In this document: positions 2,567-32,685 of the stretch, in pieces
Layout of the letters: each line of letters begins with the position of its first letter
How positions within the stretch are numbered: position 1 is the first letter of the stretch
NCBI GenBank assembly: GCA_038891615.1
Contig: JAWADY010000002.1
Coordinates: forward strand, 32,001 to 96,000
Length of the DNA stretch: 64,000 nt
Origin: Candidatus Woesearchaeota archaeon
Lineage (GTDB): Archaea; Nanobdellota; Nanobdellia; Woesearchaeales; ARS49
Reading direction: 5' to 3'
Notes under the pieces: generated by a model
The model's database searches: none
What the model saw: the letters and a program-made list of their open reading frames with translations, nothing else
What the model was told of the DNA's origin: nothing
Translations under genes and position numbers: made by a program

Positions 2567-2653
2567 GTATAACGTATGCGATTAAGAGAAGTTTTTGCGA
2601 AGCAAAAATTTTGGGAAAATTTGCAGGATTTTCCCTCCTAATCACTGTTAGCG
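2567..2653 (-). other. attC-like integron cassette recombination site (87 bp)
   Basis: Minus strand CGCTAAC...GTTATAC ends, inner arms GTGATTAGGAG / CTCTTAATCGC, two internal hairpins (TTTTTGC-GAA-GCAAAAA; GGGAAAAT..ATTTTCCC); lies just upstream of the 2542 start codon. Confidence 0.7.
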
Positions 2654-2677
2654 TCCTGAATGAAGTGAAAGCCCGTA

Positions 2678-3160
2678 CATCCACCCCATATAGAATTGGA
2701 AAGTCAAAACCTCTTGTGTTAAAGAGTATTATTTCTTTTAATTTTTCTATCTCATCATTAGAATATCCAAATTCTCCACCAAAAATAAGACCTTTTATTT
2801 TTTTAAATATGCCTAATAGTCTTAAATCGGCTAAAAAACCATCTATATTTGATAAAGATCTTCTTTAAAAAAGATTCCCCTTCAGGAGTTTCTAAAAAAA
2901 GAATTTTTCCTGAAAAATCAGGCCAATATTCAGTTCCTTTCGTATGCATAATTGAAGTAATACATCCGCCAATAATTTTTCCCATAGCATTCCCTTCTCT
3001 TAACCACTCATAACCTTTATTTTTTTATATTCTCTTTTTAATTGTAAATCCTCTTTTTTAACCAGTTTGCTTTTTTGCAATCAGTCCATTTTTCTGATGG
3101 TAAAACCTTGCCGATAGGTAAATTAGAACAAATACAATTAATAAATTTTTCATACCAGCA
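2678..3160 (-). pseudogene. Fragmented second S66 (MccF/LD-carboxypeptidase) peptidase
   Basis: Pieces in different frames: LPIGKVLPSEKWTD..., GYEWLREGNAMGKIIGGC..GTEYWPDFSGKILFLETPE, IDGFLADLRLLGIFKKIKGLIFG..FPILYGVDV; N-terminus and catalytic His region absent. Confidence 0.8.
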
Positions 3161-3180: not shown

Positions 3181-3936
3181 TCAAGAATAATTTCTACATA
3201 AAACTGCCCATTTTTGATAAGGTTCTTTTAATCCAAAATTTCTAAAAAAGATAATTTTCATATTAACTCTTTTAGCTAAGTTTTTTAGTAATTCTTTGGA
3301 AAAAGTTAAATACAGTGCTTCGCTACCTAATCTCATTTTATTATTTTCATCATAAAATGTAATTTTAAAATATCTTTTTCTATTAATTTTATATGTAGTA
3401 ACGTTAAAAGACCATTTATTTTGTAAATATCTTTTTTGAGATTGGCCGTCTTTGTAAGTTTTTGAATAATCTCGTTCATCAATCCAGCTAAAAATAATGA
3501 TCCCTTTTTCTTTCAGATTTTTTTTAATTTTATTCAAAAATCGTTGCAAAATTTTAATATTTGGAAACGTTTGGATTAAAAAAGTGGAAATGTAGATTAT
3601 ATTAAATTTCTTTTTAAGATTTAACTTTTTAATATCTTTTGAGATAAATTTTGCATTTTTAATTTTTTTATTTCTTGCAATCTTTATTAGTTTTTTTGAT
3701 ATATCAACACCAAATAATGCCTTGAAATCTTTGAGATATAAAAATAGATTTCCTGTACCACATCCTATATCTAATAAAGAAGTTTTATACGGACTGATCT
3801 TACTTTTGTTCAAAAGTTTTTTAATAAATTTTGCTTCTCCTTCATAGTCATTCAAAAAGAAATAAGTAATGTCATAATAATTTTTATCTCCAAAGAATCT
3901 AAATTTTGTTTCTTCAACATTTTTTAGTTTTTTCAT
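3181..3936 (-). CDS. Class I SAM-dependent methyltransferase
   Basis: DYEGEAKFI..LLDIGCGTG..GVDIS. Confidence 0.85.
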   Translation of the reverse strand: MKKLKNVEETKFRFFGDKNYYDITYFFLNDYEGEAKFIKKLLNKSKISPYKTSLLDIGCGTGNLFLYLKDFKALFGVDISKKLIKIARNKKIKNAKFISKDIKKLNLKKKFNIIYISTFLIQTFPNIKILQRFLNKIKKNLKEKGIIIFSWIDERDYSKTYKDGQSQKRYLQNKWSFNVTTYKINRKRYFKITFYDENNKMRLGSEALYLTFSKELLKNLAKRVNMKIIFFRNFGLKEPYQKWAVLCRNYS

Positions 3937-4471
3937 ATTTCTCTTTAAGTAAACTTAGAATAATCTCATCATAAAATTTTCCTCTTAAATAATGATGTTT
4001 AGGATTTATTCCATCTACATTAAACTTAAATTTACTTAAAAGTTTAAGCGATTTTTTATTTTCAGCTATAACTTTTGTAAATATCTTTTTTAGATTTAAT
4101 TCGTTAAATCCAAAGAGTAGTACTCTTTCTACCGCTTCACTCATTATCCCTCTATTCCAATATTTTCTATTCAAAAGATAGGCCAAACCTGCTCTTTGGT
4201 TTATTCTATCTATCTCATATAAACTTATAGTTCCAATCAATTTCTTATTAAAAATTATGCCAAAATCATATGCCTTTCCTTTTTTAAAATTACGAATAGA
4301 TTCTTTTATGTAATCGTTAGCGTTATCAAGGGTATAGGGCCAAGGAATAGATGGAAGCCATTTTATCACTTCTTTAGTAATATTTTTCTTTATGCTTATA
4401 GAGTCTTCTTTTCTTAAGTTCCTAAGAAACAATCTTTTTGTTTTTAATAATATAAGATTATTCCGTTGCAT
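3914..4471 (-). CDS. GNAT N-acetyltransferase, RimJ/RimL family
   Basis: LKTKRLFLR, WPYT, LIGTISL, YWNRGIMSEA, ENKKSLKLL. Confidence 0.9.
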   Translation of the reverse strand: MQRNNLILLKTKRLFLRNLRKEDSISIKKNITKEVIKWLPSIPWPYTLDNANDYIKESIRNFKKGKAYDFGIIFNKKLIGTISLYEIDRINQRAGLAYLLNRKYWNRGIMSEAVERVLLFGFNELNLKKIFTKVIAENKKSLKLLSKFKFNVDGINPKHHYLRGKFYDEIILSLLKEKYEKTKKC

Positions 4472-5465
4472 TTTCCAATATTTCTATAATCTTTTTTTCT
4501 GAATTTATTCTTGTTTTGACCCCTATCGGGAGAGTAATCATTGGCGATGTGTGTCCTATATCTACGTCCATTATAATCGGGATTTTATATTTTTCTCCGA
4601 AATCTTTTAATATATCAAATAATTCTCCTTCAGGAGAATCAATTTTTAGATTGAATGGTCTTCCGTATATTAAACCTTTTATTTTATTGAAGACTCCTAC
4701 TTGTTCTAAATGTACAAGATTTCTTTCAGTAGAAGAAGTTGATTCTCCTTCATCTTCTAAAAATAGTATTGCATTAGAAAAATCAGGAAAAAATTCTGTG
4801 CCAGTCATTGCACAAATAGTATTTAAATTTCCTCCAATTAAGACGCCCTCAGATTCTCCTTCATAAACACATTTAGGAGGGGAGGCTTTCTTCATTTTTC
4901 TTTTTCTATTATCTTCTTTTTCCCACCACAAAATTTCTTCAGTGTATTCGTCTGGGAATTCTAAAATCCCTAAAGGTCTTACTTCAAAAAGGGCTTTTTT
5001 AAACCATTTAATAGTAAATGGATCTGGGCCACCATACTCTCCAAAAGTTGGTAAAATAGTAGGTCCATTAAATGTTATTAAATTTGATTTTTGATATAAA
5101 GCTAGATTTAGCATAGTTATATCGCTAAAACCGCAAAAGATTTTTGGATTTTGTTTTATTAAATCGAAGTCCAAAAAAGGAAGCACAGAATTAGAATTCC
5201 ACCCTCCAGTTGAACATATTATTGCTTTTATCTCATCATCTTTAAAAAAATTCATAATATCTTCTGCTCTTTGTTTTGATGTCCCTCCTGTATGCCTAAA
5301 GGAAGATACTGCATATTTTCCAAGTTTTACTTTTAATCCTAACTTTTCTAAAGCAACAAGACCTCTCTGTAATCTTCTAGGAAAAGGTTTTATTGTAGAA
5401 GATGGACTAACTATCCCAATTGTGTCCCCTTCTTTTAAATGTTTTGGCTTGATTATTTTTACCAT
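4458..5465 (-). CDS. S66 peptidase, MccF (microcin C immunity)-like
   Basis: LKEGDTIGIVSPS, GGWNS, GFSDIT (Ser), LFLEDEGE (Glu), DIGHT (His); EYTEEILWWE aromatic loop. Confidence 0.88.
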   Translation of the reverse strand: MVKIIKPKHLKEGDTIGIVSPSSTIKPFPRRLQRGLVALEKLGLKVKLGKYAVSSFRHTGGTSKQRAEDIMNFFKDDEIKAIICSTGGWNSNSVLPFLDFDLIKQNPKIFCGFSDITMLNLALYQKSNLITFNGPTILPTFGEYGGPDPFTIKWFKKALFEVRPLGILEFPDEYTEEILWWEKEDNRKRKMKKASPPKCVYEGESEGVLIGGNLNTICAMTGTEFFPDFSNAILFLEDEGESTSSTERNLVHLEQVGVFNKIKGLIYGRPFNLKIDSPEGELFDILKDFGEKYKIPIIMDVDIGHTSPMITLPIGVKTRINSEKKIIEILENATE

Positions 5466-6286
5466 CTTTCTTTTGTCAAAAAAAGTTCTATCTCATCTTG
5501 TTTTTTTCTTTTTTGAAAGAGCAATATAGAAAAATTACAATATTGAAGATTTTTGTTAAATAATCTAAAAACTTCAAGAAGTTTTTTTCTAAGAATTTCT
5601 TTTTTATGAAAGTTACGAAGATGATCTTTATTTATAAGATAATTTACATAATCTTTAAGTCGTTTTTTTCTATCTAGATATATAAAATCTCTGTCATAAT
5701 ATAATTCTAAAGAAATATTTAGCTTTAGTGAGACACTTCTAAATAGATTTATCCAAAAATCTTTGTCCCAGATTTCAATCTTTGTTCCAATTACTTTTGA
5801 TATCTTCTCAACCAAAGAAATTGGAGGTTTTTTGGAATAATAGATAGGTATCGCCACTAAAGTTCCTCTTGTTTTCAAAACTCTTAAATATTCTAAAATA
5901 GCTTTCTCTTTATTTTCTAAAAAAGAAGTAACATTGCTACACCATACAATATCAAAACTTTCGTCTTTAAAAGGAAGATTTAAGGCATCGGCCACTTTAA
6001 ACCTAGTTCTTTTTTTAACACCTTGTTCTGATGCATATCTTTTTGCTTCCCTTATTGACTCTTCGTTAATATCAATTCCTACAGCTTTACATCCTGTTAA
6101 CAAAGCAAGATTTACAGACGTAAAACCAGTGTTACATCCAATTTCTAATATTTTTTTAGATTTATCTATATTGGCATATGTTGCAACATAATTAATAGTA
6201 CGTATTCCTCCTGAAGGCCTATTTCTTTCTCTAGTAAGAGCCACTAATTCTGAGTAGGTCATATTATCTATTTCTTTAATATTCAT
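5459..6286 (-). CDS. Class I SAM-dependent methyltransferase
   Basis: ERNRPSGG, ILEIGCNTG, GIDIN, DALNLPFKDESFD, EYLRVLK. Confidence 0.88.
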   Translation of the reverse strand: MNIKEIDNMTYSELVALTRERNRPSGGIRTINYVATYANIDKSKKILEIGCNTGFTSVNLALLTGCKAVGIDINEESIREAKRYASEQGVKKRTRFKVADALNLPFKDESFDIVWCSNVTSFLENKEKAILEYLRVLKTRGTLVAIPIYYSKKPPISLVEKISKVIGTKIEIWDKDFWINLFRSVSLKLNISLELYYDRDFIYLDRKKRLKDYVNYLINKDHLRNFHKKEILRKKLLEVFRLFNKNLQYCNFSILLFQKRKKQDEIELFLTKERW

Positions 6287-7388
6287 TTTTAAGAAGATCA
6301 TCCAAATTTTTATAATAAACATTTTCTCCTTTTTTTATTGTTATTCTTCCGCTCTCAACTTCTTTATCTCCTATAAGATATTTTTCGTTTACACTCCAAA
6401 AATCAGCGAAGTCTAATTTTTCTTTTAATGTTAAATTTTTTCTATCATCCAAATAAATTTTATTATAGTTTTTTCTTAAAATAGTATACACTCTATCTGC
6501 CAATTCTACTTGTTTTTTTTCATTTATCTTAATAGGTATCACTACTTTTTCGAAAGGTTTTATTTTTTCTGGAAGATTAATTCTGCTTCCTAAAAGATTC
6601 GATTTTAAAGATGCTAGTAAAATACGTTGTGTTCCAATTCCATAAGTCCCTACAATGACCTGTTTAAATTCATTAGTTGAAGAGATGTATCTTACATTAA
6701 ATTTTTTAGAATCTAAATAACGATAGGCCATTGCTAAACTTAATCCTACAATCTTTTTTCCATTATATTCAAAAACTTCCCCATTATCATAAGGAAATAT
6801 ATATTCTATCCCATTATTTTTTTCTTTTTTCACAAAAGAAACATTCATCTTTTGGAACAAGCAGTCTAATGTTTCTTCAAAAAGAGCCATGGATTCAATA
6901 AATTCTTTTTCATTTTTGTCTAAAGTTATCATTACTATTCCTCCAAATTGTTTAGTTTTGAGGGTTCCTTCTGGACGTTTTATATTTCTGAAACATTCAC
7001 TTAAAGCAAAATATCTTAATGGTAGCTGATAATGAGATAATATGTCTTTTTCAAATAGTTCTAGTAAATATTCTTCGGATGTTGCAAGAAGAACTTTATT
7101 GTTGAATTCAAATATTTGATCTGAAAAATCTTTATACTTCCCGCTTTTTAATAATAAATCTTTTTTATGGATTAAGGGTATCTGTACTTGATAAAACTCT
7201 TTTTTATTTAAATAATCAATAATTAAGTTATTGATGTTATCTAATAAAATCTTTCCAAAGGGAGAAAAGAAAAGAAATCCTGCATCTATGTAAGAAGCGA
7301 GTCCTAAATTTAAAACTAAATCTTTATCATTAACATGTTCTTGAAATTTTCTAAATTTTTCTTGAAAAATAATTTTTGATAGTCTCAT
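6276..7388 (-). CDS. Divergent bacterial-type prolyl-tRNA synthetase paralog (catalytic + anticodon-binding domains, no editing insert)
   Basis: MRLSK..., AGFLFFSPFG, KSGKY, LATSEE, SHYQLPLRYF..FRNIKRPEG.LKTKQF (degenerate motif 2), GTYGIGTQR (motif 3), LDDR..LKEKL.FAD. Confidence 0.75.
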   Translation of the reverse strand: MRLSKIIFQEKFRKFQEHVNDKDLVLNLGLASYIDAGFLFFSPFGKILLDNINNLIIDYLNKKEFYQVQIPLIHKKDLLLKSGKYKDFSDQIFEFNNKVLLATSEEYLLELFEKDILSHYQLPLRYFALSECFRNIKRPEGTLKTKQFGGIVMITLDKNEKEFIESMALFEETLDCLFQKMNVSFVKKEKNNGIEYIFPYDNGEVFEYNGKKIVGLSLAMAYRYLDSKKFNVRYISSTNEFKQVIVGTYGIGTQRILLASLKSNLLGSRINLPEKIKPFEKVVIPIKINEKKQVELADRVYTILRKNYNKIYLDDRKNLTLKEKLDFADFWSVNEKYLIGDKEVESGRITIKKGENVYYKNLDDLLKNEY

Positions 7389-7390
7389 TT

Positions 7391-8527
7391 TCAAGGCACC
7401 ATTATTTTATCTACCCTTGGAAAATGACAAACACTCCAAATAAAAGGCATTTCTAATAAGCCTTGTAAAAACCTCTCCCATCCAAGTCCAAACCCTGATG
7501 TTTCTTTGTAGTTTTCTAATATTCTTGATTGTAAATAGGGTTCATAATCTTTTTTTGGTAAATTAAAAATTTTTGCTTTTTCTTTTAATTCTTTTATATT
7601 TCTTACTCTATGACCGCTACCAACTATTTCTATATAGCCAGGCCATATGAAATCTGCATTATCTGCTACTAATGGTTGTTTACCATCTACTACTGCATGA
7701 TAAAAAGGAACTTCGAATAGAGGAAACTCTTTAATTATGACCATTGTCTCTAAGATCTCTGTTATTTTGACTTCTTCCCATGCTCCAAAATTTTTTAGAG
7801 TAAATTCTTTATATTTTCTGTTTTTTGTCTCGTTATACAATAAATCCAAACACTCTTTAAAAGTTATTTTAGGAGTTTTTAAAATATTTTTAGCAAATTT
7901 TTTAAGTTCTTCTAACTTACTTTCAGTTAAAAAATAAGAAAGATCTTCTTTATGGCTTTTAAATAAATCAAAAATAATCTTTTTTATTAATTTCAAGACC
8001 ATCTTTTCATTTTCTTCTTGACTAATTTTTCCTTCAAATTCAATATGATGAAATTCTGATAAATGTGTAACATCTGCTCTTTCTTTCCTAAAAGAATTAT
8101 ATATAGAATACGCCTTATTGATATTTTTTTGAAGCAAAGCTAATTCTAAATAAATTTGAGAAGATTCTGATAAAAAAACTTTTTTTGGCAGGTTAAACCA
8201 TTTTAAAGTTATTGGACAAGTATCTTTTATGTAATTAAGTTTATACTTTCCATAAACTGCACATGGTGAAGAAATCATTCTCGTAGTGAGAGGTAAAGTT
8301 ATAAATAATGCTCCTTCTTTATCAAAAAATTCATTAGCAGATTTATTTATAGAATGGTTTATTTTAGATAAATGAAACCACACATCATTATTCTTCAAAG
8401 ACTCAACTCGGTTTTTAATTTCATTCACAGAAACGTCAATTTCAAGAACATCCTTAATAGGCCTAAATATTTTATTTCCCCTATAAGAAATAGTTCCATC
8501 TTTATTGGCATGATAAGGGCCAAGCAT
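7391..8527 (-). CDS. AsnRS/AspRS-like class IIb catalytic-domain-only protein (asparagine synthetase A-like / aaRS paralog)
   Basis: FLSESSQIYLE, SFRKE..HLSEFHHIEFE (motif 2), EIVGSGHR, SGFGLGWERFL (motif 3), FPR; N-terminus too short for the OB-fold anticodon domain. Confidence 0.8.
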   Translation of the reverse strand: MLGPYHANKDGTISYRGNKIFRPIKDVLEIDVSVNEIKNRVESLKNNDVWFHLSKINHSINKSANEFFDKEGALFITLPLTTRMISSPCAVYGKYKLNYIKDTCPITLKWFNLPKKVFLSESSQIYLELALLQKNINKAYSIYNSFRKERADVTHLSEFHHIEFEGKISQEENEKMVLKLIKKIIFDLFKSHKEDLSYFLTESKLEELKKFAKNILKTPKITFKECLDLLYNETKNRKYKEFTLKNFGAWEEVKITEILETMVIIKEFPLFEVPFYHAVVDGKQPLVADNADFIWPGYIEIVGSGHRVRNIKELKEKAKIFNLPKKDYEPYLQSRILENYKETSGFGLGWERFLQGLLEMPFIWSVCHFPRVDKIMVP

Positions 8528-8651
8528 AACATAAATACAAAAAATGGATATTTATAAAAATTGCTCTTTAAAATTCGTAAAATTTTTTAGATTAAGCAAC
8601 CCCTCTCAATCTTGTGGCAGATGGTCGGGGGACAGCCGAATTCTGAATTAC

Positions 8652-8690: not shown

Positions 8691-8747
8691 GTATAGATGA
8701 GGTATAAAAAGCGAGATTTTATGAAGTTAGTTTCCATAATAAACTGG

Positions 8748-9038
8748 ATGGTAGATGATAGTAAAATCCATTCTCCAGAAGAAAAATATAAACTGATTGG
8801 TAAGCTAGTCGAGGAACTAAAACTTAGAAGATATTCCTATCAAACAGGCAAGTCATATATTTCCACAGTGAAAGACTTTCTGTCTTCAGGTAAAACGCTG
8901 AGAGAGTTTCTGCTATTAGAATCTGGTACGGATATTCGATACATTCAGCAGTTATGAGGGTATAAAGATTTGAAAACGACACAAATCTACACTCACGTTG
9001 CAAATGAGAATATAAAGAAACTTGCAAATCTGCTTTAG
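8748..9038 (+). pseudogene. Tyrosine recombinase (integron-integrase/Xer-like) remnant with large internal deletion and nonsense codon
   Basis: N-terminal ELKLRRYSYQTGKSY fused directly to [29 protein letters not shown]; TGA at 8955-8957 and Tyr in place of His in the usual LLGH motif; box I/central region missing. Confidence 0.88.
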
Positions 9039-9047
9039 CCTTTAGAG

Positions 9048-9088
9048 TTCTTTTAAGCAGAAGATTAATGCCTACAATAAGTTAACAG
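9048..9088 (-). repeat. Right terminal inverted repeat of island
   Basis: TTCTTTTAAGCAGAAGATTAATGCCTACAATAAGTTAACAG, reverse complement of 1904-1945 with few mismatches. Confidence 0.8.
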
Positions 9089-9169
9089 AACACCAAAAAG
9101 AAAGATTTAAATATGAGCATCATCCTTTTTGATTTAAAAGTTGTAACATTTTTGTGAAAAGGTGAACAG

Positions 9170-9433
9170 ATGGCTGATGATGAAAAGAAGTTCTCAAGAC
9201 AAATTCTTGGCAAAACTGTTGTTTCCAAAGCAGGAAAGCGCTTTGGGACTGTAGGGGATATTATTTTTGAAACAAAGTCGGGTGAGCTAATACATCTTGT
9301 GCTTACCGATCCTACGATATATGCTGAAAAGCTTGAGCTTGAGCGCTCAAAAGAAGGTGAAATGCTCATCCCCTTTAGCGCAGTCATTGCTGTTGGCGAC
9401 TTTGTAGTCGTGTCCGAAGAAGACCTTGTTTAG
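9170..9433 (+). CDS. PRC-barrel domain protein (archaeal CdpB-like)
   Basis: LGKTVVSKAGKRFGTVGDIIFETKSGEL...IPFSAVIAVGDFVVV. Confidence 0.88.
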   Translation: MADDEKKFSRQILGKTVVSKAGKRFGTVGDIIFETKSGELIHLVLTDPTIYAEKLELERSKEGEMLIPFSAVIAVGDFVVVSEEDLV

Positions 9434-10497: not shown

Positions 10498-11421
10498 CTA
10501 TCCAGAGCGTTTCACTGTCAGGCTTGTCTGCTTAACCCCTTCAAAGTCATAGCTTGCGGTTATTGTTAGTCTTTGCTCAAAGTCAGCCGGTTTGACCTGT
10601 TGCGTACAGCTAATGCTCTTCTTGCCATCGAAAAGCGTAACGGTGCCTGATGCAACTGTTCCAGAGGTTGTTAATCCGGTGCAACTTATCTCTCCAAGCC
10701 CTGCGTCAACCGTTACACTAACTTTGTTTTCTTCAAGGCAGTTGCTCCCCGACGCAAAAACCTTTCCTTCTCCTTTTTTGACAATATCAAAGCTAAATCC
10801 AATCTTGTCAGATGTCCGCGCCGTCTCTCGAAGGTTTTCAATTTGTATCGGCGCACCCGAATTAAAGACGGTCTTTGCTTCATTAATTTCACACAATCCA
10901 CCAGCCTCTGGATTTAGTATGTTTTTGCGTACGCAAAGCAAACTTTCAGCTTTTGTGCCGTAGTTGTAACAAACACTTGCGGCAAGTGGGAATGTGAGAG
11001 ATGCTCCTGCTAGCCTTGACTTGTAATTTAGGTTTTTGAACTCAACAGTCACAGGTAGACTCTCAATGATACTGCCACTTAGGTCACGCTTGCGTTCAGG
11101 AAGATCCTCTGTAGGCCTTCCAACGAGCTGTTCCTCAAGAACACCAAACTCAGATGGATTTATTCCAAAAAGTTTAACCCGCACCTTATCCTTGCTTACT
11201 GTCCACTCCCCCTTATTTTGAAGTCGCACCGTTACATCAAAAAAGTCTCCCCCGCCATCAAAAACTTCTGAACGGAAATCAACAAATTCTATAGAAAGCC
11301 CGGTTGTTCCTCCAAGAAATGGCGTTCTTTCTGGTGTTTTTTCCTTAACAGGCTTGCAAGCTACTAACACAAACAAAAGCAATGAGAGCAAAAGCAGTTT
11401 CTGGAAAAACTTTCTTTTCAT
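10498..11421 (-). CDS. Putative lipoprotein, beta-rich disulfide-bonded surface protein (paralog family A)
   Basis: Lipobox LVAC; GGTTGLSIEF, NKG, VCYNYGT..LC, SGAPIQI, ASYDF shared with 11464 and 14750 ORFs. Confidence 0.7.
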   Translation of the reverse strand: MKRKFFQKLLLLSLLLFVLVACKPVKEKTPERTPFLGGTTGLSIEFVDFRSEVFDGGGDFFDVTVRLQNKGEWTVSKDKVRVKLFGINPSEFGVLEEQLVGRPTEDLPERKRDLSGSIIESLPVTVEFKNLNYKSRLAGASLTFPLAASVCYNYGTKAESLLCVRKNILNPEAGGLCEINEAKTVFNSGAPIQIENLRETARTSDKIGFSFDIVKKGEGKVFASGSNCLEENKVSVTVDAGLGEISCTGLTTSGTVASGTVTLFDGKKSISCTQQVKPADFEQRLTITASYDFEGVKQTSLTVKRSG

Positions 11422-11463: not shown

Positions 11464-12408
11464 TTACCTGCTTGAAAGGATTGTAATATCGCGAACAACA
11501 GAGCTTCTATAACCATAGCTTATGGTGATTGTGAGTGGACTAACAAATGCGCTTCCTTGCGGTATTCCTGAGAGCTCACAAAAAACTGTCGCAAGCCCGC
11601 CAGAAAGCTTTACATCTGGGGCAGGTCTGCAGGTTGATGTTATTGAGCGACCTGCAACAGATACATCATCCAGCCGCACATAGTCAAACTCATCATAGCG
11701 CAAGCCTTCTGCTGCATAAGGGGAGCATTTGCTTAGATATGTTGCACCTGGCTTAAAGACCTCTCCACCGCCAACATTTGCAATTGCTATCCTGAACCTT
11801 GTTTTACCTTTTGAAGGCTCAAGCTGGATGTTTGTGACTGCTATTGGCGCTGCCTGCCCTCCTCCGAGCGCAACATTTTGCGGAGTGCAAACCTTTTGCT
11901 TAACCGTCAGCGAGTATGGGTCTGGGTCTATGCAAACATTTGCAGTAGCAATCGTTTGGTAGCCATAGCAAGCTGTTCCAAGGATTCTTGTTCTGTACTG
12001 GTCGATGCCTTTTGACCTCAAATCCCTTATTGTACCTCTAAATTGTACAACATCCTGTAGCCCAATTGGCTGAGCCAAACTTTTACCTTCGAGCTTAGGA
12101 ATTTGTGCTCCAAAAGTTGAAATCCCAGTTATTATGCTTGGGTCAAAGCCTGAAATGTATACCTTGTCTCCAGCCCCTCCAACATCAAATGCTCCTCTGT
12201 TCTCAATCCTCAACACGGCTTCAAAAGGTTGGTCGTCATAGAGCCTTGTTGGCGGAAGGTTTGGTTCAAAGCTTAGTACAAGTCCTTGGCTTCCAACTCT
12301 AAAATCAGGCACAAGCTGTTCTTCACGCTGCCGTCCCCTCAATGGCGCACAAGCAGATAAGAGCAAAAGTGCTAAAAGCAAGCCTGCAATGGCCATTACT
12401 TTTTTCAT
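11464..12408 (-). CDS. Putative lipoprotein (paralog family A)
   Basis: Lipobox LLSAC; GSQGLVLSF..PP..Y, NRG, ACYGYQT..VCID, QAAPIAV, ISYGY. Confidence 0.7.
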   Translation of the reverse strand: MKKVMAIAGLLLALLLLSACAPLRGRQREEQLVPDFRVGSQGLVLSFEPNLPPTRLYDDQPFEAVLRIENRGAFDVGGAGDKVYISGFDPSIITGISTFGAQIPKLEGKSLAQPIGLQDVVQFRGTIRDLRSKGIDQYRTRILGTACYGYQTIATANVCIDPDPYSLTVKQKVCTPQNVALGGGQAAPIAVTNIQLEPSKGKTRFRIAIANVGGGEVFKPGATYLSKCSPYAAEGLRYDEFDYVRLDDVSVAGRSITSTCRPAPDVKLSGGLATVFCELSGIPQGSAFVSPLTITISYGYRSSVVRDITILSSR

Positions 12409-12588
12409 ACCGCTACTTTGCCAACGTTCTTATTTAAAACTATCGTTAGAGGAGACAATTTTGCATTTATATCTTTGAATTTTGCCTTTATTTTGAGTCT
12501 CCCAATTTCATCTTTCTTAATACTTTTTTGAGTGCATTTTAGACAAATAATATTCTCCATCATATGTGCTACAGATAATTATATGGTG

Positions 12589-12604
12589 AAAAGTATTTAA
12601 ATAT
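12589..12604 (+). promoter_or_regulatory. Archaeal BRE/TATA-like promoter
   Basis: AAAAGTATTTAAATAT a little over 20 nt upstream of ATG 12626. Confidence 0.45.
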
Positions 12605-12625
12605 AAAAAAGATAAAAGAAAAAAA

Positions 12626-12835
12626 ATGTACAAACAAAAAACTACTTATAGCACGAATGCAAGTGGGCGTACCGACGAAAGATCTAACTATAACACGCGA
12701 GTGAAACGTATAGAAGACAGGGATAAAAGCGGGCTTTTGATGAAATTGGAGTGGCCAGAAGAGAGTATTTTTGATGATGGGAAACAAAATAACACTCTCA
12801 CTGGAGCAGCTCACCCAGGATGCTGTAAGCAATAA
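12626..12835 (+). CDS. 69-aa peptide, candidate RiPP precursor
   Basis: ATG just downstream of TATA-like box, directly upstream of rSAM/SPASM gene; ends TLTGAAHPGCCKQ; overlaps the rSAM 5' end. Confidence 0.4.
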   Translation: MYKQKTTYSTNASGRTDERSNYNTRVKRIEDRDKSGLLMKLEWPEESIFDDGKQNNTLTGAAHPGCCKQ

Positions 12836-14023
12836 GTCAGATCTAATCAGGATAGATAAGGATGTATATGCAGTAGTACGTCCAAACGAGATTTTATATG
12901 TGCGTAAAGAAGAATTAGACAATTTTAAGGATTATTCTATCCAGCCTATAAAGGAAAAAGGAAAATCCTGTCTTTCAGCAACATTTGTTCCAACACTTGA
13001 TTGTAATTTGAGGTGCATATATTGTTATGCTCGTGGTGGGGAACAAAAAGATATGATGCCCTCTTCAATGGCTCGTAGATTTTTAGAAAAAATGTATGAT
13101 CCAGCAAAACACGATGGAATTCACTTAAGATTTGCAGGCGGGGGAGAACCTTTTCTCAATTTTGCGTGTATAAAAGAAGCAGTAGAAACTGCTAAGAAAT
13201 TAACAGTAAAGTTTCTTTACATTGTATAACTAATGGGACTTTTAATAAAGAACAATTGTTTTGGATATTAAAAGAAAGGCCTCATATGAGGGTTTCTTAT
13301 GATGGTTTATCTCAGGAAATACAAAGGCCTTATAGAGGAGGAGGGGATTCATCAAACATAGTAAGAAGAAATATCCGAGAGCTTACAGATAAAGGAATAG
13401 AAACTGTTGTTCAGTCTACAATTACATCTTTAAATGTTTCTAAGATGAGAGAACTTGTATCAGAATTTTATGAGCTAGGCGTTCGAACAATAAAAATGGA
13501 ACCAGTTTATATAACCGAGAATTCAAGGGGAAATGCGAAATTGAATATTTCCCCTTCTGAATTCGTTTCAAATTTTCTAGACGCGGTTAAATATATCAGA
13601 GAAAATAATCTGGAAATGCAGATAGATACTGCTTTTTTTTCACGACCAACGCTAGGAAATTATTGTAGCTTATCTACTGGAAATATAATCTTAACTCCAA
13701 GTGGAGGTATTAGTGGATGTGTTGAAATAACAAATAATTGTGATTATCATTCAGGAGATGTCTTTTATGGAAAATTTGAAGAAGGTTTAGGGGAAATCAG
13801 GTTTGACGAGTCTAAGAAAAAATCTTTTGGGAAATTTCATTTTAGTAATTACACTAATTGCCCATCCTGTAATTTAAAACTTATTTGCAAAGGAGGATGC
13901 CCTCTTAGAAGAATCTGGAATCAGGAAGATCATTTTTGTAAAATTACTAGAAGGTTAGTTCCGCAACTTCTAAAATTATTTTACAAGGATCCTTCTTATG
14001 TTAAAATATTTATTAAAAAATGA
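12777..14023 (+). pseudogene. Radical SAM/SPASM protein split by a single frameshift near 13205
   Basis: CNLRCIYC and GGGEP in first frame; second frame opens VSLHCITNGT upstream of 13256, then VSYDG, QRP; SPASM Cys: YC..GC..CPSCNLKLICKGGCP..FC. Confidence 0.85.
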
Positions 14024-14724
14024 GACTAGATATTGCTTTAAAAAATAAAAAATTTGCCGATAGCAGGGAGAAGGCAAAATATCTTATTAGAGAAGGATAT
14101 GTCAAAGTAGACGGATCCATCGTTACAAAACCTAGTAAAAACGTTAGTGAAACCTCAAAAATTGTTTTGATTAAAGATTTTGAATTTGTTGGAAGAGGTG
14201 GCTATAAACTTGATGCGCCTGTGAAACATTTCAAAATCAGTTTTAATGACAAAATTGTCGCTGATGTTGGTTGCAGTACAGGAGGTTTTACAGATTATGC
14301 TTTAAAGCATGGGGCTAGGAGAGTATATTCTATAGATATAGGCGATCCTCTCTATGAAACTTTAAGGAAAGACCCAAGGGTTGTTTACCTTCCAAATAAT
14401 GACGCAAGAAATATCAAACGCTTGGACGAAAAGGTGGATATATGCTTAATTGATGTAACTTTCTCACCATTAGAAGAAATTCTTTTGGTTGTTAGAAATT
14501 GGTTAAAAGATAAGGGAGAAGTTCTTGGACTAATAAAACCTCCTTTTGAACTAGAAGGAAAACCTAAAAAAATATATGATTATAAAAAATGTTTTGATAT
14601 TGCTAAGGCTGTTTCTAATTGGGCATCAAAAAATGGATACGAAGTAAAGGGCTTAATTGATTCAAAATTAAAAGGCAAATCTTCAAAACAACAGGAATTT
14701 TTCATTTATCTTCTTAAGCAATAA
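14020..14724 (+). CDS. tlyA: TlyA family rRNA 2'-O-methyltransferase (S4 + FtsJ-like)
   Basis: MRLD..SREKAK..I.EG.V.VDG, FVGRGGYKL, DVGCSTGGFTD, IDVTF, LIKPPFE. Confidence 0.92.
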   Translation: MRLDIALKNKKFADSREKAKYLIREGYVKVDGSIVTKPSKNVSETSKIVLIKDFEFVGRGGYKLDAPVKHFKISFNDKIVADVGCSTGGFTDYALKHGARRVYSIDIGDPLYETLRKDPRVVYLPNNDARNIKRLDEKVDICLIDVTFSPLEEILLVVRNWLKDKGEVLGLIKPPFELEGKPKKIYDYKKCFDIAKAVSNWASKNGYEVKGLIDSKLKGKSSKQQEFFIYLLKQ

Positions 14725-14749: not shown

Positions 14750-15667
14750 CTACCTTGGCAACTTCTTTATCTCAAACTCTCTGCTAAATGCATCGTTATA
14801 ACCATACTCTAGTTCAATGCCAAGAACAGCATTAAATGTTCCAAGCCTTTTGTCAATTCCTTCTGGTAGCGTGCAGAGCGCCTCTGCTTCATTTTTTGAA
14901 AAGACCAACTCGCGTTGGCAGTTCATACTTTTGTCAAGAAGAGTAACGCGTAAGCCAGCCTTGTTAAAATCCTCAGCCTTAAGTAGTCCTGCCGCGCAAG
15001 CATCTGCTGCCCTTCCTGGTCTGACAATTATCCCTTTTCCATTATTCCTGAACTTCAGTAGAACTTGTGGCAAGACTTTTCCTTTGTCTGGATGGCTCAA
15101 AATTTTAGGTTCAACGCTTGTTAGCACAACCGGTGCGCCTTGGCCTGTCAGTTTAAGGCTTTGCATTCTACAAACTTTTTTATTCGAAGAGATCTCAGCA
15201 AAAAGGTCAGTATCTATACAAATCTCGGGAGCAGCAATTGTGGCATACTCATAGCAAATGTCAACAGTCGCTTTGGCTGGCAACCGCTCAAGCCCTGGCC
15301 CTAGTCCCATTGCTTTTGCTGGAATGGTCTCAATAATCTTTTCGCCAGTCGGGTTGTCGAGAGACTTGCCTTGAAGCTCAATAAAGCCGGACTCCTTTGA
15401 AAGCTGCACAGCATCCCTATTATAGTTTATGACATAAACTCCTCCAGAAACATCATTTGCTCCTTTGTTCCAAATCTCAAAGGCGAGGTCAAAGCTTGAG
15501 CCTTCATAAACAATCTGTGGTGGAGAGTTTTCAATCCACCTCAACACAAGCCCTTCTGTACCAGTATGTATTTGAGGCTGGACGCCTGCTGGTCGTGTTG
15601 TTACAAACTGGCAACCAGCAACCAGCAACGCTGCAAAAATGCCTATAAAAATAAGCCCTTTGCTCAT
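14750..15667 (-). CDS. Putative lipoprotein (paralog family A)
   Basis: Lipobox LVAGC; GTEGLVLRW..PP..Y, NKG, ICYEYAT..ICID, QGAPVVL, LEYGY. Confidence 0.7.
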   Translation of the reverse strand: MSKGLIFIGIFAALLVAGCQFVTTRPAGVQPQIHTGTEGLVLRWIENSPPQIVYEGSSFDLAFEIWNKGANDVSGGVYVINYNRDAVQLSKESGFIELQGKSLDNPTGEKIIETIPAKAMGLGPGLERLPAKATVDICYEYATIAAPEICIDTDLFAEISSNKKVCRMQSLKLTGQGAPVVLTSVEPKILSHPDKGKVLPQVLLKFRNNGKGIIVRPGRAADACAAGLLKAEDFNKAGLRVTLLDKSMNCQRELVFSKNEAEALCTLPEGIDKRLGTFNAVLGIELEYGYNDAFSREFEIKKLPR

Positions 15668-31653: not shown

Positions 31654-32685
31654 ATGCGTGGCGTGGCTTTGTTTTTAGTTCTTTTACTAATTTTCTTATT
31701 TCTCATACCAACACCCGTAAGCGCAGGGGTTTGGACGAAAGTCTATGAAAAGCCAAGCCCAAGCTGGCAGTACACTGGCTATTGCGATTCCACTAAAAAA
31801 TGTTTCTATGGCATTGTCAATCAGTTTGGTGATTTAAGTGAAAGTTCTTGTTCTGATATCAGTGCTTGTTATTGCATTGACTCAAATCAAGCAATAAAAG
31901 ACAATTATTGTGAAGATGGTAATTGGACTACTAGAACAAAATTTGTTGCTCAAAAACTTGCTGATTTTGCAACAGGTTATGGCAATTTTGCACTTTATTG
32001 TGATAGTGCATTTGCTGTTTTTCCAGCAATGCCTGCTTACTTTCCATCCTCAGATTTCAACAACTGGTGCATCCTTCGCTATGGCCCAAACCTCGAAAAT
32101 TTAGCATTCGGAACAAGCTTGAACAAGCAGTTAGCCCAGGACACTTTTGAACCTTACTTTAACCTTAAGAACTTTGATCCTGCAGCATGTGTAACAGCTG
32201 TTGGCTGGAAGCAGTGCGGGGTTAATTCAAAACTTTGGTTCAATCCGCAACTCAACGCAACAATATGGTTGCCCAGCGGAAGCCTTGGGACAACAACTCT
32301 TAACATAAGGACTTTGTTTAATGGCATAAAATACTTTTTCCTCCAAAAGCTTGCAAGCCACTCCCAGCGAATTTCAGCTTTCACACTTCTAAACAGAACA
32401 GAGGCTTTTGACAGAATATACTATGCAAAGGCAGGCAACAAAATGGTTTTCGCCTATGCAGAAAGCAAATTTGTTAATGAAACTTTTATGTCATCAATAG
32501 GAGGAGAGCATTCTGGGCTTGATTTTGTTTGTTCTGTTGTAAGCAACTATTGCCTTAACCATGCTTGCGATTATTGGAGCTGTGACGATTCAAGCTTTAA
32601 GATATACCACTGGGGCTTACCATCAACAGACCTTAGCGCAAGATGGCAGGACTTAACTTCAAAACTACGACTCCAGACAACATAA
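31654..32685 (+). CDS. Secreted Cys-rich hypothetical protein
   Basis: Sec-type signal ending VSA; several Cys pairs; GAGGTG upstream. Confidence 0.7.
   Translation: MRGVALFLVLLLIFLFLIPTPVSAGVWTKVYEKPSPSWQYTGYCDSTKKCFYGIVNQFGDLSESSCSDISACYCIDSNQAIKDNYCEDGNWTTRTKFVAQKLADFATGYGNFALYCDSAFAVFPAMPAYFPSSDFNNWCILRYGPNLENLAFGTSLNKQLAQDTFEPYFNLKNFDPAACVTAVGWKQCGVNSKLWFNPQLNATIWLPSGSLGTTTLNIRTLFNGIKYFFLQKLASHSQRISAFTLLNRTEAFDRIYYAKAGNKMVFAYAESKFVNETFMSSIGGEHSGLDFVCSVVSNYCLNHACDYWSCDDSSFKIYHWGLPSTDLSARWQDLTSKLRLQTT

Follow-up and report, generated by a model that had tools for sequence, protein, structure and literature searches.

What would an archaeon with a small genome do with two surplus aminoacyl-tRNA synthetase (aaRS)-like genes placed in one operon with relatives of microcin C enzymes? 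The operon that raises this question lies on the minus strand at positions 3181 to 8527 of a 64,000-nt stretch of DNA, here called the window, which represents positions 32,001 to 96,000 of contig JAWADY010000002.1 (GenBank assembly GCA_038891615.1, Candidatus Woesearchaeota archaeon); all coordinates below are those of the window. The source genome (G000; 661 kb, 5 contigs, 97.9% complete, 41% GC) bears out the small-genome archaeal setting given in a preliminary description of this DNA. That description had also proposed, in hedged form, that the operon makes and/or neutralizes an aminoacyl-nucleotide, and all of the comparative tests that we ran on the sequences agreed with the proposal. 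Our reading is that the operon probably, though far from certainly, came in by horizontal transfer as a minimal form of a widespread, unnamed cassette that would make, and protect from, an N-acyl-phosphoramidate aminoacyl-nucleotide without MccA or MccB.

A compact operon with two extra aaRS-like genes

Six minus-strand open reading frames (ORFs) span 3181 to 8527, with neighbors overlapping or abutting by 4 to 47 nt and no internal stop in any of them. The ORF list, Pfam, and NCBIfam agree with the preliminary description on six intact genes and on their domains. They are listed here from the AsnL end, after the element upstream of AsnL (SAM, S-adenosylmethionine; MT, methyltransferase).

8549-8560, minus strand: archaeal TATA-box-like element, TTTTTATAAATA, read from the minus strand
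7391-8527, minus strand: AsnL, 378 aa, class IIb catalytic core only, AgnA-related; core gene
6276-7394, minus strand: ProL, 372 aa, TTG start, class IIa core plus HGTP anticodon domain; frequent accessory gene
5459-6322, minus strand: MT1, 287 aa, class I SAM-MT of the AgnB1/MccD type; core gene
4458-5465, minus strand: S66, 335 aa, Peptidase_S66 N- and C-terminal domains, MccF/AgnC5 type; core gene
3914-4471, minus strand: GNAT, 185 aa, Pfam Acetyltransf_3 (RimL type), 94.3 bits, resembling MccE2; accessory gene
3181-3936, minus strand: MT2, 251 aa, Pfam class I SAM-MT, Methyltransf_31, 59.9 bits, AgnC3-like type; accessory gene

The ProL ORF has an ATG two codons past its TTG, at the point where homologs begin, and the true start of MT1 is probably about 12 codons inside its ORF. 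The TTTTTATAAATA element is centered ~28 to 29 nt upstream of the AsnL ATG (8527 to 8525), a position which, if the element is the promoter that it resembles, implies a near-leaderless operon transcript.

Because G000 also encodes a canonical AsnRS (485 bits, cutoff 414) and an archaeal-type ProRS (619 bits, cutoff 437), AsnL and ProL are extra copies; AspRS, LysRS, and SerRS-, ThrRS-, HisRS-, and GlyRS-like genes are present as well. That AsnL might be the housekeeping AsnRS of DPANN archaea, an idea prompted by its many 378-aa relatives at 60 to 87% identity, was rejected on account of this canonical AsnRS and of the patchy distribution of AsnL described below. The ThiF/MccB family (PF00899) had no match in G000 and was found in 12 of 14 control genomes, as expected if, as had been stated for lack of mccA and mccB, this is not a canonical microcin C cluster.

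AsnL is linked to an MT and usually to an S66 peptidase

In scans of contigs from genomes and metagenomes, an AsnL homolog turned up at 17 + 24 = 41 loci. They came from DPANN archaea and, at 43 to 50% identity, from the candidate phyla radiation (CPR; Moraniibacteriota, Minisyncoccota, Saccharibacteria), from metagenome-assembled genomes (MAGs) labeled Bdellovibrionales, and from a gammaproteobacterial MAG. Linkage was counted over 20 of these 41 loci (full loci), those whose sequence extends 3.5 kb or more past AsnL on the downstream side; among them, three pairs (L012/L038, L034/L035, and L037/L052) have gene maps so alike that they seem to be near-duplicates.

Adjacent class I SAM-MT, ~277 aa: 20/20 full loci
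S66: 18/20 full loci
ProL-type gene: 10/20 full loci
GNAT: 1/20 full loci
MT2: 1/20 full loci (L048)

The core of AsnL, SAM-MT, and S66 is thus kept together in other genomes at 18 of the 20 full loci, and locus L048 has all six genes in the order of the window; to judge from this recurrence, the six-gene set is not a chance grouping. ProL, GNAT, and MT2 are accessory. The cassette MT comes in two subtypes over the full loci, AgnB1/MccD-like in 12 and one designated c4 in 8. Among the first 17 loci, the MT1 type was present at 9 by BLAST and S66 at 15, with L013 and L017 cut by contig ends.

Other neighbors vary from locus to locus. Several are themselves synthetase-like: MetRS-like genes, a 670-aa class I synthetase-like gene, a LysRS-like gene (234 bits, cutoff 468), weakly HisRS-like genes, a second AsnL paralog, and a bona fide E-type ProRS (528 bits, cutoff 437) with a divergent copy alongside. 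The rest include ATP-grasp, radical-SAM/SPASM, and molybdopterin oxidoreductase genes and, at L034 and L035, a pyridoxal phosphate (PLP)-dependent decarboxylase of the Orn/DAP/Arg type, which at L034 matches the N-terminal half of MccE (E 2e-12). At L014, a molybdopterin subunit adjoins the cassette.

The same domains also occur fused. P0123 joins AsnL to a c4-type MT, P0216 joins an MT of the MT2/AgnC3 type to an AgnA-like domain, and P0159 is a GNAT::AgnA-like protein. Five large proteins (P0174, P0181, P0214, P0196, and P0218) combine Asparaginase_2 and/or HIT domains with a C-terminal AsnRS-like domain, two of them adding a carnitine acyltransferase domain, and the Atlas clusters built in this way number 54 and 106 members. 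According to the review PMC8323819, the microcin C phosphoramidase MccH has the HIT fold. G000 has three HIT-domain genes, all on contig C1.

AsnL is a relative of AgnA with a remodeled amino acid site

Against the AsnRS model, AsnL scored 132.6 bits (cutoff 414) and aligned from model position 131, so that it has no N-terminal OB domain; the earlier reading of an AsnRS-like catalytic domain without an anticodon domain stands. AsnL is 26% identical by blastp to AgnA of the agrocin 84 plasmid pAgK84 (E 2e-26), and in a tblastn search of plasmids with AsnL, agnA of pAgK84 was matched at 96 bits and 89% coverage, a score at least as high as those of matches to true AsnRS genes. In a tree of 40 rows, rooted at the midpoint only and including neither bacterial AsnA nor archaeal asparagine synthetase A (AS-AR), the 23 AsnL rows (support 100/99) and the 10 AgnA-type rows (99/96) joined at 99/95, and AsnRS, AspRS, LysRS, and the LysRS-like neighbors all fell outside that clade. 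By this tree, AsnL is a separate 378-aa subfamily that is sister to the AgnA clade, not an AgnA ortholog.

AsnL and the AgnA-type proteins have derived features in common. Both have no OB domain, in both the AsnRS CEGG loop is replaced by a TT..(I/V)SSP...D(T/S)xP segment, and in both QSxQ is changed to (E/D)SxQ. Motif 2 (FRxE), the AsnRS-type Glu of HLxEFxHxE, the E..G.G.R segment, and motif 3 are retained. As read from these alignments, the ATP-site motifs of AsnL are kept and its amino acid site is remodeled. An AlphaFold2 (AF2) model of AsnL (pLDDT 86.6, pTM 0.89) had as its best Foldseek matches AsnRS structures with bound Asn-AMP analogs (TM 0.74 to 0.78).

The subfamily is sizable. Among the candidates scored, 594 relatives of AsnL were found at E <= 0.001, and the best 120 of these were nearly all 378 aa long and 61 to 87% identical, the named ones coming from Pace-, Woese-, and Nanoarchaeota. 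A profile search of 1.84 billion representatives returned 69 proteins at E <= 1e-30, and the ~37 of these that score above ~170 bits are taken as AsnL proper on that score.

Could AsnL instead be a plain asparagine synthetase (Asp + NH3 + ATP) that offsets the loss of AsnB, its neighbors being passengers or parts of amino acid or peptide salvage? G000 has no match to Asn_synthase (PF00733), which 24 of 25 relatives do match (about half of those at full length); this tally and the relative and phylum tallies of AsnL given below include genome G009, on which alone no claim rests. PGAP names AgnA-type proteins "asparagine synthetase A," and the retained AsnRS-type Glu, the intact ATP site, and the Foldseek matches to Asn-AMP-bound AsnRS would suit such an enzyme. 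In contrast, AsnL scored only ~104 to 110 bits (best, 110.2; cutoff 389) on the asparagine synthetase A models (PRK06462 submodels), where AgnA-type proteins, at 190 to 271 bits, also fell under the cutoffs of 322 and 389. In the PDB, archaeal asparagine synthetase A was matched at ~30 bits versus 72.7 bits for AsnRS. The replaced flipping-loop Glu and QSxQ, the tight linkage to an MccD-like MT and an MccF-like S66, and the fusions likewise speak against this function, as does the distribution of AsnL, which is present in 0 of 40 relatives at the family or order level and is missing from G001, a genome that, like G000, has no PF00733 match. AsnL has in common with AsnRS and AS-AR the class IIb catalytic fold with motifs 2 and 3, and differs from them in the missing OB domain, the scores far under curated cutoffs, the remodeled loop and QSxQ, and a constant link to an MT and usually S66. 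A role as a plain asparagine synthetase seems to us distinctly improbable.

MT1, S66, and possibly GNAT have counterparts in the microcin C system

MT1 is 36% identical to AgnB1 over 281 aa, that is, over its full length (E 1e-61), and 31% identical to MccD over 176 aa (E 1e-27). When MccD was used as the query against the 1,285 ORFs of G000 together with all ORFs of the loci, the top 21 matches were cassette MTs; as a control, the next methyltransferase of G000 reached only E 3e-7. AgnB1 and the Xenorhabdus MT (see below) align to 259 to 265 of the 267 residues of MccD, and MT2 and AgnC3 match MccD solely in a SAM motif of ~45 aa. On these alignments MT1 is a homolog of AgnB1 and MccD. This link had been overlooked in the earlier comparison with the mcc genes, which was correct as to the MccF-like part.

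S66 is 34% identical to AgnC5 over 336 aa (E 6e-62) and 36% identical to MccF (E 5e-59). In the PDB search it matched MccF over its full length at 191 to 201 bits and LdcA at 83 to 105 bits in two pieces, and on the LdcA model it scored 132.3 bits, under the cutoff of 378. Its residues S114, W181, E237, and H305 align with S118, W186, E243, and H311 of MccF, and the catalytic triad is invariant in 8 of 8 aligned sequences; the roles of MccF S118 and of W186, the adenine-stacking Trp, are described in PMC8323819. By triad, stacking Trp, and scores, S66 is MccF/AgnC5-like and not LdcA-like, and the grouping with LdcA that had been named as a way for the initial idea to fail was not found.

GNAT is 27% identical to residues 440 to 585 of MccE (E 1.5e-14) and matched the MccE structure 3r95 at 49.8 bits. 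Its likeness to MccE2 (E ~2e-12) equals its likeness to the GNAT domain of the Pantoea GNAT::AgnA-like fusion (E 4e-13), a domain that matched no other ORF of G000. The suggestion that GNAT is MccE2-like is upheld by the MccE alignment and qualified by the PDB search, in which YdaF and SpeG did equally well or better.

As S66 and GNAT are homologous to two microcin C immunity enzymes, the island might serve detoxification or immunity only, with these enzymes and spare or decoy synthetase-like proteins directed against antibiotics of neighbors or hosts. The lack of an exporter in the island would be in keeping with this, and stand-alone MccF homologs are said in PMC8323819 to be numerous and able to protect. 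However, the AgnA homolog AsnL and the MccD homolog MT1 are not needed for immunity, and AsnL, having no anticodon domain, cannot stand in for AsnRS. Moreover, it is the pair of AsnL and MT that is linked at 20 of 20 full loci and occurs in fused forms, whereas GNAT is found at 1 of 20. We regard a purely protective island as quite unlikely.

ProL would fit a biosynthetic ligase better than a resistant ProRS

ProL scored 111.3 bits (cutoff 558) and 47.6 bits (cutoff 437) on the two ProRS models. It has neither the editing domain of bacterial enzymes nor the C-terminal domain of archaeal ones, and its PDB alignment splits where the insertion domain is absent. All Foldseek matches listed for its AF2 model (pLDDT 87.8) are ProRS, with bacterial-type enzymes at TM 0.81 to 0.83, in agreement with the earlier description of a divergent ProRS. 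The motif 2 and motif 3 arginines (R136 and R257) and the T-x-E pair (T105 and E107), which in ProRS presumably binds the substrate amino group, are kept across the family. ProL is 29% identical to the Streptomyces ProL (E 7e-56) and 28% identical to that of Xenorhabdus (E 3e-29).

The idea that ProL is a resistant target copy of ProRS did not hold up well. Its scores lie far under the ProRS cutoffs, its motif 2 reads FRNI instead of FRDE, and in Xenorhabdus ProL-type genes accompany a separate LeuRS of the resistant type, all of which make a resistant copy unlikely. A biosynthetic ligase is the more likely role.

The cassette is part of agn and of other antibiotic-like plasmid clusters

The closest described system is that of agrocin 84 from Rhizobium rhizogenes K84. 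The agn operon of pAgK84 includes agnA ("Agrocin84-synthetase"), a 273-aa SAM-MT (AgnB1), the resistant LeuRS gene agnB2, agnC1, and agnC5 ("MccF-like protein"). According to PMC8323819, AgnA has been proposed to make the phosphoramide bond of agrocin, AgnC1 is remotely ProRS-like, and agn-like clusters of actinobacteria have an extra MetRS. The window operon resembles agn in an AsnRS-like protein without anticodon domain, a SAM enzyme, and an MccF-like S66, and perhaps also in a ProRS-like protein. The comparison with agn made at the outset was right about AgnA, as the tree confirms, but had missed AgnB1, AgnC5, and the possible counterpart AgnC1. Unlike agn, the island has no resistant LeuRS (AgnB2) or exporter (AgnG), although genes of both kinds occur at related loci. 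It also has none of the tailoring genes AgnC2 to AgnC4, AgnC6, AgnC7, and AgnD to AgnF, and so shows no sign of a deoxy-arabinose nucleoside or of a glucofuranosyl uptake group. Finally, it differs in a ProL not detectably related to AgnC1, in the addition of GNAT and a second MT, and in its archaeal host.

With the Escherichia coli mccABCDEF system the window has in common homologs of MccD (MT1), apparently of the C-terminal GNAT domain of MccE, and of MccF (S66), and a homolog of the N-terminal PLP decarboxylase domain of MccE occurs at the sister loci L034 and L035. The island differs in having no MccA, MccB, or MccC exporter and an aaRS-like enzyme in place of MccA/MccB, so that any product would be nonribosomal and without a Trojan horse peptide.

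Larger relatives of the cassette are found on plasmids of culturable bacteria. Xenorhabdus bovienii CS03 (NZ_FO818638.1) has genes for an AsnA-like protein, MT, S66, a nucleoside phosphorylase, VOC and GloA proteins, LeuRS, ProL, and an MFS protein. Streptomyces sp. NBC_01707 (NZ_CP109191.1; L028, 269178 to 277320) has an AsnL-like protein, a SAM-MT, FAD-binding and molybdopterin (xanthine dehydrogenase-like) subunits, ProL, and S66, followed by a P450. In Peribacillus psychrosaccharolyticus (NZ_CP068052.1), MT, AsnA-like, and S66 genes lie beside AlaRS, an AlaRS-related gene, an MFS gene, and an ATP-grasp gene. These three clusters resemble the window in the AsnA-like protein, SAM-MT, and S66, and those of Xenorhabdus and Streptomyces also in ProL; they differ from it in bringing exporters and spare LeuRS or AlaRS genes, to which Xenorhabdus adds the nucleoside phosphorylase and Streptomyces the FAD/molybdopterin oxidoreductase subunits and P450. 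The AsnA-like proteins of all three fall into the AgnA subfamily, being 42 to 49% identical to one another and ~25 to 28% identical to AsnL. A Bradyrhizobium plasmid carries S66, AsnL, HAD, and MT genes, Exiguobacterium has a larger cluster in which sugar-nucleotide genes are joined by genes for a glycosyltransferase and a deoxynucleoside kinase and by an extra AlaRS, and in Pantoea the GNAT::AsnL fusion is accompanied by an MFS gene.

The nucleoside phosphorylase (PNP_UDP_1) of the X. bovienii CS03 megaplasmid adjoins S66 (L029, 16842 to 17597). The removal of methylthioadenosine (MTA) has been tied to aminocarboxypropyl transfer for Mtn and MccD (PMC8323819), and a phosphorylase that removed MTA would fit such transfer by an MccD-like MT. 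The gene content of the Streptomyces locus would fit a phosmidosine-type compound; phosmidosine contains 8-oxoadenine, a prolyl group, and an O-methyl group. In a literature search that did not extend to subscription journals or supplementary files, we found no characterization of the Xenorhabdus, Streptomyces, and Peribacillus clusters, no biosynthetic genes for phosmidosine in the texts available, nothing beyond PMC8323819 on agrocin biosynthesis after 2019, and no description of the cassette or of a link of DPANN or CPR to MccF, microcin C, or agrocin, though a prior one may exist. The word "undescribed" in the preliminary description therefore applies to the lineage and to the minimal form and not to the kind of system, since agn and mcc are known; what appears to be new is the minimal, peptide-free form in archaea and CPR and the finding that an AgnA/MccD-like/MccF-like core is shared.

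These bacterial clusters bear on a further alternative, in which the product is an adenylate-derived molecule or modification other than an aaRS inhibitor, for instance a nucleotide that serves signaling or storage, of which an O-alkyl adenosine phosphoramidate would be an example, or aminoacylated protein or RNA. Paralogs of aaRS catalytic cores without an anticodon domain can act on non-tRNA acceptors, and EpmA and GluQRS are aaRS-like proteins that aminoacylate protein or RNA. NCBIfam gives AsnL a weak similarity to the EpmA family, and the minimal DPANN and CPR loci have neither exporters nor spare aaRS genes. The versions in culturable bacteria, in contrast, come with MFS exporters and with additional LeuRS or AlaRS genes of full length, as is typical of self-resistance to an aaRS inhibitor; agn, one of the members, is known to produce an inhibitor of this type, and S66 keeps the nucleobase-stacking Trp of MccF. 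A product with some purpose other than aaRS inhibition is to our minds unlikely, if deserving of consideration.

The operon lies in a horizontally acquired island

The operon has a GC content of 22 to 31% against ~42% in its flanks and is the longest stretch below 31% GC in G000. It is part of a 7.3-kb insertion (~27% GC versus 41% for the genome) sited between the genes for TyrRS and RFC: the distance from TyrRS to the homolog of an 87-aa gene (9170 to 9433 in the window, followed by RFC) is 130 bp in G016, ~1 kb in G015, and 7.3 kb here. Further features of the insertion are as follows.

2014-2038, no strand assigned: imperfect direct repeat of 25 nt, left copy; putative border of att-like type
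2643-3151, minus strand: second MccF-like S66, C-terminal-half remnant, frameshifted pseudogene found by tblastn
8697-9038, plus strand: decayed tyrosine recombinase (Xer/integrase-like), weak Phage_int_SAM_4 match
9074-9098, no strand assigned: direct repeat of 25 nt, right copy, lying shortly beyond the recombinase remnant

A repeat search found the two direct-repeat copies to be identical at 22 of 25 positions and 7060 nt apart; by a rough estimate their significance is only moderate, and their position agrees with where synteny places the insertion. At 1904 to 1920 there is also an inverted copy of 17 nt, complementary to 9072 to 9088 at 17 of 17 positions. The recombinase remnant has ~112 codons, an in-frame stop, and an N-terminal SAM-like segment that runs straight into a C-terminal ...TTQIYTHV motif, most of the catalytic core being gone. 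The remnant of the second S66 consists of three high-scoring segment pairs in different frames (3151 to 3053, 3057 to 2863, and 2861 to 2676), which cover residues ~151 to 310 of the S66 of L031 and reach 75% identity within a stretch of 65 aa. The window has no tRNA gene that would be the target of integration. Judging from synteny, the shift in composition, the decayed recombinase, and the imperfect flanking repeats, the island is a horizontally acquired insertion. The distribution of AsnL is of a piece with this: besides its absence from the 40 relatives at the family or order level, it is carried by 14 of the 401 genomes of an even phylum sample (G000 included), scattered over families and with some copies fragmentary. 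One genome of that sample, rated as belonging to the same class, has its match at the contig coordinates of locus L012, which bears the label Nanoarchaeota/Nanobdellota, and G000 is on this ground probably a DPANN archaeon of that phylum. Since the six genes and the TATA box are intact next to a decayed recombinase and a decayed second S66, we count this state of preservation in favor of a functional cassette of the kind proposed.

A sharp fall in GC, from ~0.42 to 0.22 to 0.30, and nearest AsnL relatives from other lineages could also arise if the assembly had joined in the operon of a low-GC organism. Per-run contigs from four hot-spring metagenome runs, which may be the source samples, bridged both junctions with 0 differences, in runs X1 and X2 as single contigs of 24,951 nt. 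Read depth was even across the island in three of the four runs, and the flanking repeats and the recombinase remnant fit a real integration. A chimera is hardly credible. In run X6, the contig over 3561 to 7708 had a depth of 6.4 versus ~13 for flanking contigs, which could reflect population heterogeneity or low-GC bias.

Other contigs of the same four runs, up to 76.6 kb long, match 8773 to 8794 and 9040 to 9069, at the edges of the recombinase remnant, with a gap of 112 nt between the matches compared to 245 nt here. They continue with a AAGTTAACA-type motif as in the flanking repeats, which may be an att-like or regulatory site that genomes living side by side have in common. Within the insertion, two small minus-strand ORFs (2057 to 2209 and 2225 to 2542) have no Pfam match and a GC content of ~0.36 to 0.39, intermediate between island and genome; a Cys-rich motif stands at the C terminus of one of them, and the other contains a CPKC motif. 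Beyond the insertion, the minus-strand ORFs 10498 to 11421, 11464 to 12408, and 14750 to 15667 had no Pfam match where tested and have homologs in relatives; by their cross-matches they are a small paralogous family kept beside RFC. A second GC dip (0.33 to 0.34) with positive GC skew and ORFs without Pfam match extends over 12500 to 14500, and two segments elsewhere in G000 (C1, 201 to 205 kb, and C2, 157 to 159 kb) that are also below 0.31 GC are possible further foreign segments.

A proposed pathway and its weak points

We favor synthesis of, and protection from, an N-acyl-phosphoramidate aminoacyl-nucleotide because of the linkage of AsnL, MT, and S66; the occurrence of this set in agn and on plasmids, where antibiotic-cluster-type genes (MFS exporters, extra LeuRS or AlaRS) lie beside it; the homologies, the tree, the S66 residues, and the fusions; and the nature of AsnL and ProL as extra copies, the mobility of the island, and the intactness of its genes. 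The product would have the N-acyl phosphoramidate chemistry that agrocin 84/TM84, phosmidosine, and processed microcin C have in common. In the pathway that we infer, AsnL, as an AgnA-type enzyme, would use ATP to join an amide derived from an amino acid to the alpha-phosphate, taking the role that MccB has on the MccA peptide but acting on a free small molecule. MT1 would alkylate the product from SAM with a methyl or 3-amino-3-carboxypropyl group, probably on the phosphoramidate, ProL would activate or load a second acyl or aminoacyl group, and MT2 would put on a further methyl. The MccF-type S66 would cleave the acyl-N bond and the MccE2-type GNAT would acetylate the alpha-amino group, which together would keep the producer's own synthetases safe.

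Several observations weigh against this reading. An exporter, a full-length spare aaRS, and genes for nucleoside tailoring are all missing from the island. AsnL could simply supply asparagine, G000 being without an AsnB-type enzyme. The AsnL tree was built without AS-AR or AsnA rows. ProL had no BLAST match to AgnC1, and hhalign gave that pair a probability of 4%. The c4 subtype of the MT, at 8 of 20 full loci, is not linked to MccD by BLAST, L037 and L052 (a near-duplicate-looking pair) are without S66, and GNAT and MT2 join the core at only a single full locus each. For GNAT, YdaF and SpeG score as well as or above MccE. The agrocin pathway itself, to which we compare the operon, is stated in PMC8323819 to be unknown.

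A more far-reaching scheme, which we consider speculative and more apt to be wrong than right by a wide measure, would place one modular pathway behind agrocin 84, phosmidosine, and hidden synthetase poisons. AsnL/AgnA would act on free Asn in an MccB-like manner, by way of Asn-AMP, a succinimide, and attack on a second ATP, to give isoasparaginyl-phosphoramidate-adenosine. S66 would then be biosynthetic as well, stripping off aspartate to leave adenosine 5'-phosphoramidate, the phosphate of which MT1 would cap. Interchangeable aaRS-like ligases (ProL, AlaRS-related, MetRS-like, and others) would reacylate the adenosine 5'-phosphoramidate. The hints behind this scheme are the retained AsnRS-type substrate residues, the Asparaginase_2-HIT-AsnRS-like fusions, the varying aaRS-like partners, and the xanthine dehydrogenase-like pair of Streptomyces, which would fit the 8-oxoadenine of phosmidosine. 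If it is true, exporterless DPANN and CPR episymbionts would pass the product directly into the hosts to which they are attached.

Implications

If the operon acts as proposed, the cassette narrows the question of how the N-acyl phosphoramidate bond is made to a set of three or four small, soluble enzymes amenable to expression and assay. Through the MccD-like and MccF-like parts that both have, it ties the agrocin system to that of microcin C, and it suggests that aminoacyl-nucleotide antimetabolites can be reached by a route without a peptide. The culturable relatives in Xenorhabdus, Peribacillus, Streptomyces, and Exiguobacterium, with their differing spare synthetases, may yield new aaRS inhibitors and include a plausible phosmidosine-type cluster. 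For DPANN archaea and CPR bacteria, whose interactions with their hosts are poorly understood, the cassette is a candidate for a means of chemical warfare or host manipulation.

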